Shown: positions 8,825-34,582 of the stretch, piece by piece
Numbering within the stretch: the first letter of the stretch is position 1
Layout of the letters: each line of letters begins with the position of its first letter
NCBI GenBank assembly: GCA_017468465.1
Contig: JAFUIN010000018.1
Coordinates: 9,766 to 73,765, forward strand
Reading direction: 5' to 3'
Length of the DNA: 64,000 bases
DNA from: Clostridia bacterium
GTDB lineage: Bacteria > Bacillota > Clostridia > UMGS1840
Position numbers and translations under genes: made by a program
The notes under the pieces: generated by a model
The model's database searches: none
The model's input: only the letters and a program-made list of their open reading frames with translations
Told to the model about the DNA's origin: nothing

Positions 8825-10576
8825 ATGACAGACAACAAATTTGTGTTAAGCTGGGTTGAAGAAATGAAAGCCCTTGTAAAGCCCGCTAACGTAGTATGGA
8901 TTGACGGTTCCGAAGAACAGCTGGAAAGCTTAAGAGAACAGTCTTGCAAATCCGGCGAAATGATCAGACTGGATCAGGAAAAACTGCCGGGATGCTTTTA
9001 TCATAGAACTGCGCAGAACGACGTTGCTCGTGTAGAAGACAGAACCTTTATCTGTGCAGAAAGCGCAGAAGAAGCCGGCCCCACCAACAACTGGATGGAC
9101 CCCAAAGCTGCTTACGAAAAATTAGGCAAGCTGTTTGATGGCTCCATGGCTGGAAAAACCATGTATGTAATTCCCTTCATTATGGGTGTGTTAGGCTCTC
9201 CCTTCTCTAAAGTTGGTATCGAGCTGACCGACAGCATCTATGTTGTGCTGAACATGGCAATTATGACCCGTGTTGGCATTCAGGCAGAAAAACAGCTGGG
9301 CGACAGCGCAGACTTCACCAAATGCTTACACGCTTGTAAAGATGTAAACCCCGATGAAAGATGGATTATGCACTTCCCCCAGGACAACACCATCTGGAGC
9401 ATCAACTCCGCATACGGCGGAAACGTATTGCTGGGTAAAAAATGTCTGGCTCTCAGAATTGCAAGCTATTTAGGTAAAAAAGAAGGCTGGATGGCTGAAC
9501 ACATGCTCATCTTAGGTCTGGAAAATCCGAAAGGCGAAGTAAAATACATTGCTGCAGCATTCCCGTCTGCTTGTGGTAAAACCAACCTGGCAATGTTAAT
9601 TCCGCCCGCTATCTTAAAAGGCTATAAAGTATACACCGTAGGTGATGATATCGCTTGGATTCGTGTTGGTAAAGACGGCAGACTCTGGGCTATGAACCCC
9701 GAAGCAGGCTTCTTCGGTGTTGCGCCGGGTACCTCTAACAAAACCAACCCCAACGCATTGGCTACTACCATGAAAAACACCATCTTCACCAACGTATTCT
9801 TAAAAGACGATAACACTGTTTGGTGGGAAGGTATGGACGGTGATGCTCCGGCATCCGGTATCGACTGGCTGGGCAATCCCTGGACTCCCGAAAGCGGTGT
9901 AAAAGGTGCACATCCCAACTCCAGATTTACCGCTCCGGCTGCACAGTGCCCCTGCATTTCTCCCGAATTTGAATCTACCGAAGGTGTTCCGCTGTCTGCA
10001 ATCGTATTTGGCGGCAGACGTGCAAAAACTGCTCCGCTGGTATACCAGTCCTTCAACTGGAACCACGGTGTATTCATGGGTGCTACCATGGCTTCCGAAA
10101 CCACCGCTGCTGCTGCAGGTCAGGTTGGTGTGGTTCGCCGTGACCCCATGGCTATGATTCCCTTCTGCGGATACAACATGGGTGACTACTTCCAGCACTG
10201 GCTGGATATGGGCACCAAAACCGATAAACTGCCCTTAATCTTCCACGTAAACTGGTTCAGAACCAATGCAGACGGCAAATTCATCTGGCCCGGCTTTGGT
10301 GACAACATTCGTGTACTGAACTGGATTTTGGCAAGATGTGCAGGCGAAGTTGACGCTGTAGAAACTGCAATCGGTTACCTGCCCAAGAAAGAAGATTTAG
10401 ACTTAACCGGTTTAGACATTTCTGATGAAGTGTTAGACGAACTGTTAAGCGTTGATAAAGAAGTTTGGCTGGAAGAAACCAAAGGCATCGGCGAATTCTT
10501 TGCAAAATTTGGCGACAGATTACCCAAAGAATTGGCTGCTGAACTGGAAAACTTAAAAGCAAGACTTTCTAAATAA
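8825..10576 (+). CDS. pckG: Phosphoenolpyruvate carboxykinase (GTP)
   Basis: About 583 aa with the FPSACGKTN kinase-1a motif and GTP-PEPCK length. Start set at ATG 8825, 9 nt after AAGGAG. Confidence 0.9.
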   Translation: MTDNKFVLSWVEEMKALVKPANVVWIDGSEEQLESLREQSCKSGEMIRLDQEKLPGCFYHRTAQNDVARVEDRTFICAESAEEAGPTNNWMDPKAAYEKLGKLFDGSMAGKTMYVIPFIMGVLGSPFSKVGIELTDSIYVVLNMAIMTRVGIQAEKQLGDSADFTKCLHACKDVNPDERWIMHFPQDNTIWSINSAYGGNVLLGKKCLALRIASYLGKKEGWMAEHMLILGLENPKGEVKYIAAAFPSACGKTNLAMLIPPAILKGYKVYTVGDDIAWIRVGKDGRLWAMNPEAGFFGVAPGTSNKTNPNALATTMKNTIFTNVFLKDDNTVWWEGMDGDAPASGIDWLGNPWTPESGVKGAHPNSRFTAPAAQCPCISPEFESTEGVPLSAIVFGGRRAKTAPLVYQSFNWNHGVFMGATMASETTAAAAGQVGVVRRDPMAMIPFCGYNMGDYFQHWLDMGTKTDKLPLIFHVNWFRTNADGKFIWPGFGDNIRVLNWILARCAGEVDAVETAIGYLPKKEDLDLTGLDISDEVLDELLSVDKEVWLEETKGIGEFFAKFGDRLPKELAAELENLKARLSK

Positions 10577-13847: not shown

Positions 13848-13857
13848 TTTTGGTTCC

Positions 13858-13990
13858 TTTCTTTCATCCTGACTGTAACGGTCGGTATTGGAATTTCACC
13901 AATTCAGCTCAGATTTTTGAGCGCGTGGACTGTCTGCCAAGTGCGGCACTTACCACCGGTCGGGAATTTCACCCTGTCCTGAAAGTATAT
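13858..13990 (-). promoter_or_regulatory. FMN riboswitch (RFN element)
   Basis: The minus strand reads AGGACAGGGTGAAATTCCCGACCGGTGGTA...GGTGAAATTCCAATACCGACCGTTACAGTCAGGATGAAAGAAAGG, which matches the conserved RFN core blocks. The P1 3' strand abuts the ribU RBS, suggesting translational control. Confidence 0.85.
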
Positions 13991-17291: not shown

Positions 17292-18371
17292 TTAACGGGC
17301 AATTTCTGCAAGCTGGAGCTGCAGAGTAACAAAGCCTTCCATATCAAATGTCACGGTTTCGCCTAAGGAAGAAGTTAAGTCAGACAAGGTGGCAGTGACT
17401 TCATTCACGAGAATTTCACCGTTACATAATATAGAAAAGATTCCCTCAATTTGCTTATCGGTGATACTGATAAGCTTGTTTAGTTTCAGGGTGTATTGCT
17501 TGCCATCAACGGTAAAATTGCCGGAGACGGTTAAAGCTGATTGGTCGGGAGAAATTTCAAAGCCTAACAAGCCGGTTGCCTGTTCTCCGTTGTAATTTTT
17601 TGCATTCAATCCGTAAAAAACAGGGGATTGCTTTTGGGTATTTGGTTCGGTGTTTTTCAATGCGGCAAGCAGACGATAATCATATTCTTCGGTATGTAGA
17701 CTGAGCTGATTGTTTTCAACGGTTACAGTTCCTTTGATTGTTTCATATTTTACGGCTTCGTTCATAATAACCTTAAACGCTCCCGTAAATCCGTTTTGTT
17801 GGGTAGAAGTTGTTTCCACAAGCGTGATTTCGCAATCTATGTAATCTCCCAATCCGCCGTTATTGCAACGCATTTTTGCAGAAAAAGAGGCATTTTTTTG
17901 AGTGGCATCCCAAGCTAATGCTACTTCTCCTTTGATTGCTTCTTTTTGGTAGCCCGAAATTTGCAGAATTTCATTGGTGGTGTAAGAAAACTCCGAAGGC
18001 ATTGCTACAGGAGCTTGTGTCGGGTTTGGAGCTTCTGTAGGGGTTGGTGCGGGCGTTGCAACGAGGGGATTGTCGGGGAGTGTGACGTCGGTTAAGAAAA
18101 CGGTATTGGTTGTGCCGTCCCATCTGACTTCTTTTTGCAGAGCTTCTCCGATGGCACGGACCGGAAGGTAGGTTGTGCCATTTACGATAAAAGGTTCTAC
18201 GCGGTTTCCGTTGGCATCTTTTGGTTGAATTTCTGTCCCGTTGATCATAATTTTGATGTCAGAAAACCACGCTTCCAGTGTTTCACTTTCTGTTTTTGCC
18301 AGCGTGATGCCACCGGTCAGCATAGAACCGATCAGCATTCCTGATACCATGCTTCTAATGTTTTGTTTCAT
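17292..18371 (-). CDS. Secreted protein with a copper-amine-oxidase N-terminal-like (stalk) domain
   Basis: Signal-like N-terminus MKQNIRSMVSGMLIGSMLTGG after AAAGGAGG, then the NGTTYLPVRAIGEAL stalk-domain motif and a Pro/Thr/Ala linker. The ORF-track start at 18488 was rejected for lack of an RBS. Confidence 0.7.
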   Translation of the reverse strand: MKQNIRSMVSGMLIGSMLTGGITLAKTESETLEAWFSDIKIMINGTEIQPKDANGNRVEPFIVNGTTYLPVRAIGEALQKEVRWDGTTNTVFLTDVTLPDNPLVATPAPTPTEAPNPTQAPVAMPSEFSYTTNEILQISGYQKEAIKGEVALAWDATQKNASFSAKMRCNNGGLGDYIDCEITLVETTSTQQNGFTGAFKVIMNEAVKYETIKGTVTVENNQLSLHTEEYDYRLLAALKNTEPNTQKQSPVFYGLNAKNYNGEQATGLLGFEISPDQSALTVSGNFTVDGKQYTLKLNKLISITDKQIEGIFSILCNGEILVNEVTATLSDLTSSLGETVTFDMEGFVTLQLQLAEIAR

Positions 18372-18624
18372 GTTTGTTTCCTCCTTTGGAACATCTGTTT
18401 TTCGCGCGGTTGTGCGTAAAAAATGCGCAGTGCTCTGGACACTACGCATGAAAAATGCACAGCTCCTTTTGCTGCGACACAAATTCATTCATCCTATTAA
18501 AGCATGTTGAAACAGAGCCTGCATTTTTACACAAAAAAAGGTATAAAAATACACACTTTAACAGGAAGCTTTATTTGAATTTATGTCGCAAATATATTGT
18601 AACACAGTTTTAGATATTATGCAA
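18372..18624 (-). promoter_or_regulatory. Promoter plus about 218-nt structured leader with a leader terminator (cassette B)
   Basis: TTGCAT(18619-24)-17-TGT-TACAAT(18596-601). Long-range helix GCGAC(18585-90)/GUCGC(18473-78). Terminator GCGUAGUG/CACUGCGC plus AUUUUUUA at 18417-18447. Confidence 0.45.
18585..18615 (-). repeat. 31-bp direct repeat, copy 1 (promoter -10 / leader 5' end)
   Basis: GTCGCAAATATATTGTAACACAGTTTTAGAT matches 19057-19087 at 30 of 31 positions. Confidence 0.9.
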
Positions 18625-18667
18625 GCATTTTTTCCTTTTATGTTTGAAAGTAAACAATCTTTTTTTG

Positions 18668-18892
18668 TTATCGAACGGAACCATTAAACAGTCCACCGTT
18701 ATTTTTCGGGTGTCTGGGACAGCCTTCGCTAAGACAATTATCACAGTCCTGGGGTTTGAAATACTCCAGACAACAGCATAGATAATTGCACTCGTCACAA
18801 CAACATTCATTTCCATTCTCACCGTTCCCGGGGCAGTCTTTCCCATGATTTCCGGGAATCAACTCAATTCCGGTGGGTCCGTCTATAATCAT
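18668..18892 (-). CDS. Small cysteine-rich protein (11 Cys in 74 aa, two CCC triplets), function unknown
   Basis: Strong RBS (GAGGAAGG, 5 nt before the ATG). Sequence MIIDGPTGIELIPGNHGKDCPGNGENGNECCCDECNYLCCCLEYFKPQDCDNCLSEGCPRHPKNNGGLFNGSVR. I do not recognise the family. Confidence 0.6.
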   Translation of the reverse strand: MIIDGPTGIELIPGNHGKDCPGNGENGNECCCDECNYLCCCLEYFKPQDCDNCLSEGCPRHPKNNGGLFNGSVR

Positions 18893-19096
18893 ATACCTTC
18901 CTCTTTTCCAAATAAAAAATGCGCCAACCGAAGTTGACGCATAAAAATGTATAACTTCGGTACTGTTGCGACACAGTCTGTTCTAAAACAGGATGAACTA
19001 CCAAAGCATACATTTTTAACAAAAGTATGCCCTGTTTTAGAACAATATTCAGCTGCGTCGCAAATATATTGTAACACAGTTTCAGATGAAAAACAA
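18893..19096 (-). promoter_or_regulatory. Promoter plus about 170-nt structured leader with terminator/antiterminator (cassette A)
   Basis: TTGTTT(19091-96)-17-TGT-TACAAT(19068-73). About 98-nt compound hairpin 19063-18966, including a perfect 13-bp inverted repeat (18980-92 / 19031-43). Antiterminator 18953-61/18927-35. Terminator GCGUCAAC-UUCG-GUUGGCGC plus AUUUUUUAUUU at 18910-18940. Confidence 0.5.
19057..19087 (-). repeat. 31-bp direct repeat, copy 2
   Basis: GTCGCAAATATATTGTAACACAGTTTCAGAT; see copy 1. Confidence 0.9.
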
Positions 19097-19210
19097 GCTT
19101 TTTTATATTTTTTTCATAAAAATTGGGTAACTGCTTTCCAGTGACATTACCTGTTTTCACAAAATTTGCGGAATTTGTGGAATCTGCCACTACAATTTCC
19201 CTGATTTTGC

Positions 19211-19239
19211 TTGACAAAATTTTCCCCTTATGCTATGAT
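19211..19239 (+). promoter_or_regulatory. Predicted leu operon promoter
   Basis: TTGACA, 17-nt spacer, TGC-TATGAT. Confidence 0.6.
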
Positions 19240-19274
19240 GAAATCAAATATGATACGAATTGGAGATTGTCTCT

Positions 19275-19367
19275 ATGATGCAATTTACGGCAAACTTATT
19301 TTTCCTGTACTGCATTACCTTGTTGTTATGTTTGGGTAATGCTGTTTGCCGTGCAACCGAAAGATAA
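19275..19367 (+). CDS. Candidate leucine-rich leader peptide (30 aa)
   Basis: GGAGA lies 8 nt upstream. Sequence MMQFTANLFFLYCITLLLCLGNAVCRATER has 6 Leu including LLL-C-L. Sits between the promoter and a terminator just upstream of leuA. Confidence 0.45.
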   Translation: MMQFTANLFFLYCITLLLCLGNAVCRATER

Positions 19368-19390
19368 TCTCTTTTTGAAGGCTATAAAAA

Positions 19391-19434
19391 AGAGTCTGCG
19401 GTTGTATCTGATTGCAACAGCAGGCTTTTTCTTT
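19391..19434 (+). terminator. Leader (attenuator) terminator upstream of leuA
   Basis: Stem 19391-19404 / 19415-19428 (about 11 bp plus AU/GU pairs, one mismatch) followed by TTTTTCTTT. CAACCG at 19354-59 can pair with CGGTTG at 19399-404 as an antiterminator. Confidence 0.55.
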
Positions 19435-19465
19435 ATATAATATTTTTTAAGAAGGAGTGAGAACT

Positions 19466-20968
19466 ATGGCAAAATGTGTGAAAATTTTTGACACAACCTT
19501 GCGCGACGGAGAACAGTCTCCCGGCTGCAGTATGAACCTAACCGAAAAAATTGAGGTGGCTCGTCAGTTAGAACTGTTAAAGGTGGACATCATTGAAGCC
19601 GGCTTTGCCATTGCCTCTCCTATGGATTTTGAATCGGTAAAAGCAATTTCCGGCGCAGTAAAGGATGCAACCGTGGCAAGTTTGGCGCGTGCAACCTATA
19701 AAGATATTGATGCGGCATACGAGGCAGTAAAAGATGCAGTAAGCCCCCGTATTCACACCTTTATTGCAACTTCTCCCATTCATATGCAATACAAGTTGAA
19801 AATGAAAGAAGAAGAGGTAATTGAACGGGTAAAAGAAATGGTTTCCTATGCCAAAAAATACTGTTCTGATGTGGAATTTTCTGCAGAAGATGCTTCCCGC
19901 AGTGACAAAGCCTTTTTAGCCAAAGTGATTGAAACTGCCATTTCAGCCGGTGCCACCACTGTGAACATTCCCGACACGGTGGGATATTCTACCCCTGATG
20001 AATTTGCGGCGTATATCACCTACTTAAAAGAACAGGTTCCGAATATAGAAAAAGCAGATATTTCTGTTCATTGCCACAACGATTTGGGAATGGCAGTTGC
20101 CAACTCTTTAGCAGCAGTCAAAGCCGGTGCAACCCAAGTGGAATGTACCGTAAACGGTATTGGAGAACGTGCCGGAAACACCTCTCTGGAAGAAGTGGTA
20201 ATGGGCATTCAAACCCGAAAAGATTACTACGATGCAGCAACCAACATCAATACCCGTCAGATTTACAGAAGTGCGAAGCTGATTTCTGCCATTACCGGTG
20301 TGAGCATCCCCCCCAATAAAGCCATTACCGGTGCCAATGCCTTTGCGCACGAATCGGGCATTCACCAGCATGGAATGCTCCAGAATCGGCAAACCTACGA
20401 AATTATGACGCCGGAATCTATCGGGAAGCCTGCCATTCAGATGGTTTTGGGAAAACATTCGGGCAGACACGCTTTTGAAGAACGTCTCCAGATTTTAGGC
20501 TATCAACTGACCAAAGAAGAACTGGACTGCACCTTTGAGCATTTCAAACTGTTGGCTGATAAGAAAAAATCTATTACCGACCGTGACATCGAAGCTTTGC
20601 TTGCCAACAAAAAGGTGCAGATTCACGAAACCTATACACTGGAGCGGTTTGTTATCAATTCGGGTAACACCATTACCTCCACCGCTATGATTAAAGTAAA
20701 ATGTGGGGATGATTTCATCGAAAAGGTGGCAACCGGTGACGGTCCCATTGATGCGGCATTCAAGACCATCAATCAGATTACCGAAAAGAATTTTATTTTG
20801 AATGACTATGTAATTCACGCTGTTACCGAAGGCGAAGATGCGTTGGGCGAAGCGGTGGTGAAGCTCCATCTTGACGGCAAAAAAGCAACCGGCAGAGCCA
20901 TCAGCACCGACATTGTGGAAGCAAGTATTAAAGCCTACTTAAATGGCGTAAACAAACTGATTGTGTAA
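19466..20968 (+). CDS. leuA: 2-isopropylmalate synthase
   Basis: About 500 aa with [11 protein letters not shown] and HxH motifs and a C-terminal LeuA dimerisation/regulatory domain. ATG 19466 lies 8 nt after AAGGAG. Confidence 0.9.
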
Positions 20969-34441: not shown

Positions 34442-34582
34442 TGCTACGCCGAGAGGTGAGGTTAGTTGATAGCAAAAGGCATTATAATTAAAATTTGTGG
34501 GACACAAATTTTCACCTTATAAAAACAAAAGACATAAGGAAAATCCCTATGCCTTTTGCGGTCTGTATTCTTTTATCAAGCC
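34442..34582 (-). repeat. About 140-bp structured repeat, right copy (inverted relative to the left copy; begins 2 nt after the acpP stop)
   Basis: See 32293-32432. Contains a terminator hairpin and a perfect 10-bp hairpin AAAATTTGTG-GGA-CACAAATTTT. Confidence 0.85.

Follow-up and report, generated by a model that had tools for sequence, protein, structure and literature searches.

A putative new family of transcription attenuators with a long-range anti-antiterminator in gut Clostridia and their prophages

Two adjacent genes on the minus strand of a 64,000-nucleotide stretch of a Clostridia bacterium genome (lineage UMGS1840; assembly GCA_017468465.1, contig JAFUIN010000018.1, forward-strand positions 9,766 to 73,765; hereafter the window) are each headed by a promoter-like sequence, a structured leader RNA and an intrinsic terminator. 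Cassette A precedes a gene for a 74-residue Cys-rich peptide, and cassette B a gene for a secreted protein with a copper amine oxidase N-terminal-like domain. Comparison with related loci indicates that the two leaders belong to a real, uncatalogued RNA family, widespread in gut Clostridia and their prophages, of which more than 100 non-redundant copies were found. The leader is conserved in sequence, it lies directly upstream of genes, and three of its helices (P1, A:B and C:D, defined below) covary. On these grounds it appears to represent a new family of attenuator with an unusual long-range anti-antiterminator. We consider it probable that the leader is a portable transcription attenuator that acts in cis, and that each cassette is a self-contained transcription unit. 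An initial annotation of the window had described an attenuator layout duplicated before two adjacent genes. The layout is supported by the number of copies and by covariation of the closing helix, of the terminator and, more weakly, of the antiterminator; both window copies are real, but the duplication is not merely local, as the family is large and stands before many kinds of gene.

The leader opens with a long 5'-terminal hairpin, closed by helix P1 and continued by helix P2. Segment A (about 15 nucleotides (nt); consensus UAAAAAUGnnnnCUYUG) follows the hairpin apex on its 3' side, and the apical hairpin also contains a U-rich partner for it, A'. Segment B (consensus GRAGnnnnnCAUUUUU) comprises the 15 nt directly before the terminator, C is the 5' arm and loop of the terminator, and D is its 3' arm with the U-tract. 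Segment A is complementary to B in every leader. B can alternatively pair with C. Compensatory changes give the A/B subtype pairs AAAAUGCAAAUUCC/GGAGUUUGCAUUUU, AAAAAUGCGGAUUCC/GGGGUCUGCGUUUUU and AAAAAGUGUUUUCUCU/GGAGAGGCACUUUUU. The bulge on the 5' side after P1 (consensus (G/U)AAUAUU) is conserved and keeps a constant distance from the start, and the sequence of the P1 base (UGC/GCA) is conserved too. The interior of the hairpin varies in sequence, in length and even in branching. The initial annotation had cautioned that the interiors of the two window helices differ; the same variability runs through the family and argues against a shared ligand pocket. The A:B pairing, the AAUAUU bulge and the scale of the family were absent from that annotation.

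Copies of the leader were reached by two routes. A search with an alignment of 135 homologues of the peptide led to 80 loci in genomes of uncultured gut Clostridia. All close homologues (loci L002-L023, L063 and L079) carry the same kind of leader, with an extended -10 element, a hairpin beginning about 5 nt later and a terminator just before the ribosome-binding site, and L001 and L010 have the terminator end of the leader only. All 25 leader-bearing loci of this set, which were reached via the peptide and not via the RNA, present TGnTAnnnT at the same distance from P1, together with the P1 hairpin and the terminator; all 25 also have complementary A and B segments (-8 to -20 kcal/mol), among which compensatory variants occur. 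The second route was a DNA pattern in which three conserved blocks (AAAAAKG, TTTTNNTGCG and RCGCAYTTTT) are fixed. It matches two copies only in the window, 22 in 20 of the 80 genome loci (several being extra copies), at least 120 loci in a metagenome collection and 18 viral contigs in IMG/VR. Among the 123 metagenome matches listed, the A:B duplex reaches -10 kcal/mol or lower in 112, and these 112 were kept. A covariance model (R1) also returns two copies in the 64-kb window; both are in its training alignment, so that this result mainly means that the window holds no third copy. The model recovers leaders that fail the pattern (L014, L016, L018, L020, L021 and L023) and one outside the pattern scan (L220). 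A weak partial match to R1 at 34474-34557 on the minus strand (19.9 bits, E 0.009, model positions 32-109 only) is probably an AT-rich chance similarity. BLAST of a typical leader against phages gave two unannotated metagenomic 'Bacteriophage sp.' GenBank records only, and against plasmids it gave no match.

These sets provide the covariation on which the pairing scheme rests; in every comparison with shuffles, kinship among the sequences inflates the contrast. In the largest alignment (A3, 78 sequences; helices A':A2, A:B and C:D, where A2 is a repeat of the core of segment A), 88.1% of the cells are paired and the covariation score is 0.305, compared with 0.201 for shuffled alignments, none of 500 of which scored as high. 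Sliding the partner by 1-3 columns brings the score to 0.14 or less. Alignment A4, with 45 full-length sequences and P1 added to the same helices, has 89.4% of cells paired and a score of 0.325 (0.206 shuffled), and 31 pairs have changed on both sides, compared with 20.3 +/- 1.9 in shuffles. The first 8 base pairs (bp) of P1 exchange freely in it while 96.4% of their cells remain paired; one pair occurs as GC 20 times, CG 16, AU 5 and UA 2. Alignment A5 contains 32 peptide-derived, model-aligned sequences and was scored for A:B and C:D, with 96.2% of cells paired and a score of 0.467 (0.217 shuffled); its A:B helix is 95.7% paired and 10 of the 15 pairs have changed on both sides. The peptide-derived set is free of the bias of the pattern, and the answer is the same. 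Across the family the terminator helix is paired in 95-97% of cells and covaries, and RNAalifold independently predicts P1 and the terminator. The structure of the antiterminated state is 78.7% paired and scores 0.219 (0.190 shuffled). Within it, B:C is 79.8% paired across 78 sequences, with 6 of 11 pairs changed on both sides and modest covariation. In both window copies B:C takes up the terminator's 5' arm and is thereby incompatible with the terminator.

An apex with two registers, in which A' pairs with A or with the downstream repeat A2, was considered as a general mechanism and rejected, since it was found in only 37 of 80 cases, compared with 18% in controls. It appears to be a subtype feature of about half of the family.

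The genes that follow the leader share no common pathway. Among 101 usable non-redundant copies, 72 are followed on the same strand by a Shine-Dalgarno (SD) sequence and an open reading frame (ORF) of at least 35 codons whose start is no more than 40 nt from the U-tract (median 21 nt); in 91 the distance to the ORF is at most about 200 nt. The products include Cys-rich peptides, Cu_amine_oxidN1 proteins, BspA-type leucine-rich repeat (LRR) proteins, M23 and CHAP hydrolases, Ltp-type lipoproteins, small XRE regulators, Dam-like and EcoRI-like methylases, a glycosyltransferase, an AMP-binding enzyme, a sigma-factor fusion, HicB-like and HIRAN-like proteins, and peptidases; several are typical of prophage accessory sets. 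The order leader-peptide-leader-stalk protein of the window recurs in L016, L020 and L021, and leader-plus-peptide units occur in tandem in L005, divergently in L006 and in another chromosomal context in L220. In L063 (1880-2250) tandem leaders precede a HicB-like antitoxin-type protein and then the peptide. In L121 (493-915) a truncated XRE ORF (MSF*) comes after the first copy and the intact gene after the second, and in L132 (219-620) one leader leads directly into a second, which precedes a different Cys-rich peptide. In viral contigs (L201-L218 from IMG/VR, and L219, MT835845.1) the leader stands before proteins of about 110-160 residues that look HIRAN-like by eye and match only PHROGs of unknown function. 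It also stands there before a sigma-factor fusion of about 550 residues, at a locus that is very common in human-gut assemblies (L096 type).

A structural basis for a switch can be proposed from these pairings; the transcription start, the switching, the default state and the effector are all predictions. A sigma-A-type extended -10 promoter would start transcription at the base of the P1/P2 hairpin. Segment A would first pair with A' in the apical hairpin, after which B, C and D would emerge in that order. In the antiterminated state A':A and B:C would coexist and D would be free, so that the polymerase could read into the ribosome-binding site and the gene about 20 nt downstream. In the terminated state A:B and C:D would form instead; A:B would be a loop-to-tail pseudoknot acting as the anti-antiterminator, and the product would be a transcript of about 150-200 nt. 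In the roughly half of the family that has A2, A' could re-pair with it once A leaves, which would lower the cost of switching. Energy calculations on both window copies give the antiterminator as the minimum-energy fold just before D emerges. With D present, the terminator fold gains about 6 kcal/mol over the antiterminated one, and A:B together with the terminator is estimated to be a further 5-7 kcal/mol better when pseudoknot penalties are ignored. The early optimum of the antiterminator and the later advantage of the terminator suggest a decision that is set kinetically. The leader has no conserved ligand-pocket look and the regulated genes are unrelated; hence we think the effector more likely to be a macromolecule that acts in trans, either a protein that binds RNA or an RNA, or else pausing of the polymerase at U-runs, than a metabolite.

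Several points weigh against this attenuator model. The main structural reservation is one of geometry: A:B crosses P1/P2, yet no more than 6-10 nt separate P1 from B, so that pairing in cis needs a pseudoknot in which the hairpin bends at the bulge or junction, or the apex releases A. Support for B:C and A':A (about 79% paired) is clearly weaker than for the other helices, and in the L002-like subtype the antiterminator is built from another pairing. The five A-U pairs of A:B are invariant, so that part of what is conserved may have a different role, for example in pausing. Collection of the metagenome and viral sets relied on the three fixed blocks of the pattern and was followed by a filter on A:B energy, and a model-derived alignment leans towards the modelled structure. 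Finally, termination could be constitutive.

A related account dispenses with the switch: the 5'-terminal hairpin would stabilise or process the mRNA (by 5' protection or as an RNase III site) and the terminator would be a fixed, leaky dampener. The hairpin does begin at the inferred +1, like known 5' stabilisers, duplexes that are long and near-perfect are RNase III substrates in general, and the terminator fold is the minimum-energy state. A fixed dampener, however, needs neither A:B nor B:C, and both are kept by compensatory changes across subtypes; we find this account quite unlikely. Were the element a metabolite or ion riboswitch, the long hairpin and the A:B pseudoknot would be an aptamer in which a ligand stabilises one state, and a thiol-reactive or metal ligand would be possible given the Cys-rich peptide. 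Riboswitch expression platforms typically combine a pseudoknot, an antiterminator and a terminator in this way, the AAUAUU bulge is conserved and unpaired, the P1 base is conserved in sequence, and a protein partner is not evident. The ZTP/pfl, c-di-GMP-II, fluoride and preQ1-II riboswitches likewise pair a loop with the 3' tail, and the freedom of that tail sets antiterminator against terminator. In the present leader, by contrast, the pseudoknot, at about 15 bp, is far longer, the interior helices are free to differ in length and branching, and no pocket nucleotides are conserved: nearly all conserved positions are explained by the competing pairings (P1, A':A, A:B, B:C and C:D), the AAUAUU bulge excepted. 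The downstream genes are heterogeneous and without a metabolic theme (LRR surface proteins, XRE regulators, methylases, peptidases, sigma factors), and no Rfam family matches. A riboswitch in this sense is unlikely.

A dedicated antitermination protein acting on the polymerase or on the leader would find analogies in the lambdoid PR'-tR' region with its '6S' transcript and Q, in LoaP with its leader hairpin, and in put-like RNAs; the AAUAUU, roughly at +20 to +27, would serve for sigma-dependent pausing or for loading. As in the lambdoid and LoaP systems, a constitutive promoter, a short structured transcript and a terminator precede accessory or prophage genes. A -10-like element is found in the early transcribed region, the AAUAUU is kept at a fixed distance from the start, and copies occur in prophage and viral contigs (18 from IMG/VR, and the two GenBank phage records). 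Unlike those systems, the leader has an RNA structure that covaries and includes an explicit antiterminator, and the complementarities A:B and B:C would be left unexplained. AAUAUU is, moreover, a poor match to a -10 element and lies inside an RNA bulge, and the loci and flanks that were read hold no conserved neighbouring antiterminator gene and no Q- or LoaP-like gene or element, although no systematic search was made. We assign this explanation a low probability but regard it as a live alternative; it overlaps the attenuator model if the protein chooses between RNA folds, and such a protein may even be the effector. The leader could, lastly, be a small RNA gene in its own right with a trans-acting product, and the downstream genes would be neighbours or expressed by leakage. 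The terminators are strong, genomes carry several copies, some 10% of copies lack an ORF within 200 nt, some precede decayed ORFs (L121, L134 and L137), and the type abundant in the human gut lies 137 nt ahead of its gene. The 71% of non-redundant copies with an SD and start codon at most 40 nt past the U-tract on the same strand leave no room for a second promoter, and the covariation of A and B within each copy points to action in cis; such a gene is very unlikely, though the terminated product could have a second, trans-acting role. Models of known small RNAs found no support in the Rfam scan at E<=10.

In its logic of terminator, antiterminator and anti-antiterminator the model follows classical attenuators, and in its topology it recalls pseudoknot riboswitches. 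The trp, his and leu leaders and the pyrR- or TRAP-controlled leaders of Firmicutes and Proteobacteria share with it a chain of mutually exclusive pairings and an intrinsic terminator directly upstream of the gene, and the outcome depends on an upstream segment being free to pair. The present leader differs from them in having no conserved leader peptide and no repeats known to bind proteins, such as (G/U)AG triplets or a PyrR box, in an anti-antiterminator formed by a long-range pairing of about 15 bp from the apex of a 100-170-nt 5'-terminal hairpin, and in regulated genes that are mutually unrelated. A leader-peptide attenuator was rejected, as there is no conserved ORF or SD. The sole recurrent AUG in the leader lies in AAAAAUG, has no SD and is absent from L014, L016 and L018; the ORFs that begin there in the two window copies have 11 and more than 50 codons. 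A T-box leader was likewise rejected, with no T-box hit in the Rfam scan even at E<=10. Type III toxin-antitoxin systems (ToxIN-like) have the same order of promoter, structured RNA, leaky terminator and protein gene, but the leader holds no tandem repeats and the downstream genes are diverse (Cys-rich peptide, Cu_amine_oxidN1 protein and others) and not ToxN-like endoribonucleases; an antitoxin RNA of this type was rejected.

In agreement with the initial annotation, which recognised no known class of cis-regulatory RNA, a scan with Rfam 15 assigned the leaders to no family. In the window only a flavin mononucleotide (FMN) riboswitch passes the gathering threshold; within 18200-19500 the best hit at E<=10 is rliA, with 23 bits against a threshold of 50, and 20 further leader-carrying loci gave one tRNA hit and nothing else. 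Literature searches for the motif turned up only general catalogues of unnamed candidate RNAs.

The features of the two window cassettes are collected in Table 1. The two copies of the 31-bp direct repeat reported earlier (18585-18615 and 19057-19087) agree at 30 of 31 positions. Over the first 25-26 nt they match exactly, where shuffled sequences lead one to expect 0 such matches, and the promoter and +1 segment of cassette B repeat those of cassette A exactly. The identity covers the promoter, +1 and the first P1 bases (26 nt, 18585-18610 and 19057-19082), compared with only about 75% over the whole promoter-plus-leader alignment, which suggests gene conversion or a strong constraint near the promoter. 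The extended -10 elements with their -35 boxes 17 nt upstream were read again on the minus strand of both copies, and by consensus match both are of the sigma-A extended -10 kind (TGnTATAAT-like). Both leaders fold into the long 5' hairpin that had been described, closed by GCGAC/GUCGC of the first transcribed bases. The perfect inverted repeat of cassette A is present and measures 14 bp, and its 9-bp antiterminator (18961-18953 with 18935-18927), which is the B:C pairing of this copy, appears in the minimum-energy fold of the nascent transcript. Ahead of each ribosome-binding site stands a terminator with a G+C-rich hairpin of 10-11 pairs (18942-18919 and 18449-18423) and 6 U directly after it. 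The three shared blocks (UGUGUCGCA, CAUUUUU(C)AUGCGU and GCGCAUUUUUUA) were found as described, and the proposed comparison with other genomes showed the blocks to be conserved and covarying.

Table 1 Features of the two leader cassettes in the window (coordinates in the order of the features' reading on the strand given, or as ranges)
Cassette	Feature	Position	Strand	Basis or remark
A	Promoter: -35 TTGTTT, 17-nt spacer, extended -10 TGT-TACAAT	19068..19096 (-35 19096-19091; -10 19076-19068)	-	sequence
A	Predicted transcription start	near G19061	-	inferred from sequence
A	Long 5' hairpin	18966..19063	-	fold z -7.3 vs shuffled sequences
A	P1	19063-19053 with 18976-18966	-	fold, covariation
A	5'-side bulge CUGAAUAUU	about 19052-19044	-	fold
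A	P2	19044-19031 with 18992-18979	-	perfect 14-bp inverted repeat (19031-19044 / 18979-18992)
A	Apical hairpin, GCAUAC with GUAUGC	19030-19025 (GCAUAC)	-	fold
A	Segment A UAAAAAUGUAUGCUUUG	19002..19018	-	3' side of apex; complements segment B; RNAduplex -11.2 kcal/mol
A	Segment B GAAGUUAUACAUUUUU	18958-18943 (feature 18943..18961)	-	pairs with A, or with terminator 5' arm and loop 18935-18927
A	Antiterminator 5' arm ACCGAAGUU	18961-18953	-	overlaps segment B
A	Intrinsic terminator AUGCGUCAAC-UUCG-GUUGGCGCAU, then U-tract	18913..18942	-	terminator scan, covariation
A	SD AGAGGAAGG	18903-18895	-	precedes the 74-residue Cys-rich peptide gene
A	Gene for 74-residue Cys-rich peptide	18892-18668	-	ORF list
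B	Promoter: -35 TTGCAT, 17-nt spacer, TGT-TACAAT	18596..18624 (-35 18624-18619; -10 18604-18596)	-	sequence
B	Predicted transcription start	near G18589	-	inferred from sequence
B	Long 5' hairpin	18473..18590	-	fold z -5.4 vs shuffled sequences; inverted repeat I2
B	P1	18590-18576 with 18487-18473	-	fold
B	Bulge AAUAAAG	about 18575-18569	-	fold
B	Segment A UAAAAAUGCAGGCUCUG	18529-18513	-	within AU-rich apical hairpin; A:B duplex -17.0 kcal/mol
B	Segment B GGAGCUGUGCAUUUUU	18466-18451	-	expression platform 18417..18466
B	Terminator AUGCGUAGUGU-CCAGA-GCACUGCGCAU	18449-18423, U-tract 18422-18417	-	terminator scan
B	SD GGAGG	18384-18380	-	precedes the secreted-protein gene
B	Gene for secreted protein, copper amine oxidase N-terminal-like domain	18371-17292	-	Pfam Cu_amine_oxidN1, E 2.3e-10

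The 74-residue peptide and its 135 homologues have no match in Pfam, NCBIfam or PHROG, and nothing meaningful was found among PDB sequences. The family signature is MIIDxTGIELIPGNxGKDCPGNGE..ECCCDEC..CC..C..C..CPR. In distant homologues (among L024-L080), for example that of Fumia xinanensis (L055), the RNA leader is absent, and a divergently transcribed XRE helix-turn-helix gene and a palindromic operator adjoin; the palindrome, of about 34 bp (ATAGACTAATACATTATATAATGTATTAGTCTAT), lies over the -10 element. Two other RNA elements of the window are separate from the cassettes. On the plus strand, 19211-19456 holds a leuA leader with a promoter-like TTGACA-17-TATGAT, an SD, a 30-codon ORF (MMQFTANLFFLYCITLLLCLGNAVCRATER) with a run of Leu codons and a strong hairpin of terminator-like form (fold z -5.0). 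It resembles an attenuator with a leucine leader peptide more than a T-box, of which there was no hit. The FMN riboswitch (RF00050, 101 bits) lies at 13852-13990 on the minus strand.

The widest version of the attenuator model is put forward tentatively, as a possibility that we hold with less than even confidence. It would make the leader a new class of riboregulator in gut Clostridia (Oscillospirales-like lineages and Monoglobus) and their prophages: a portable cassette with a 15-bp pseudoknot as the anti-antiterminator, an RNA-binding factor or a new ligand as the signal, and dozens of unrelated genes (accessory, surface and prophage) under one control. The clear covariation and the simple pairing scheme make the leader a good candidate for Rfam and for experiments, and it would also be a compact, modular terminator switch for the engineering of Clostridia. 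Should the switch prove real, a single RNA element would govern many genes of varied kinds in abundant, little-studied gut anaerobes of humans and ruminants. Their products would include surface LRR proteins, cell-wall hydrolases, XRE regulators, orphan methylases, a sigma factor, prophage accessory proteins and the conserved Cys-rich peptide, and identifying the effector would expose a regulatory signal common to these bacteria and their prophages.

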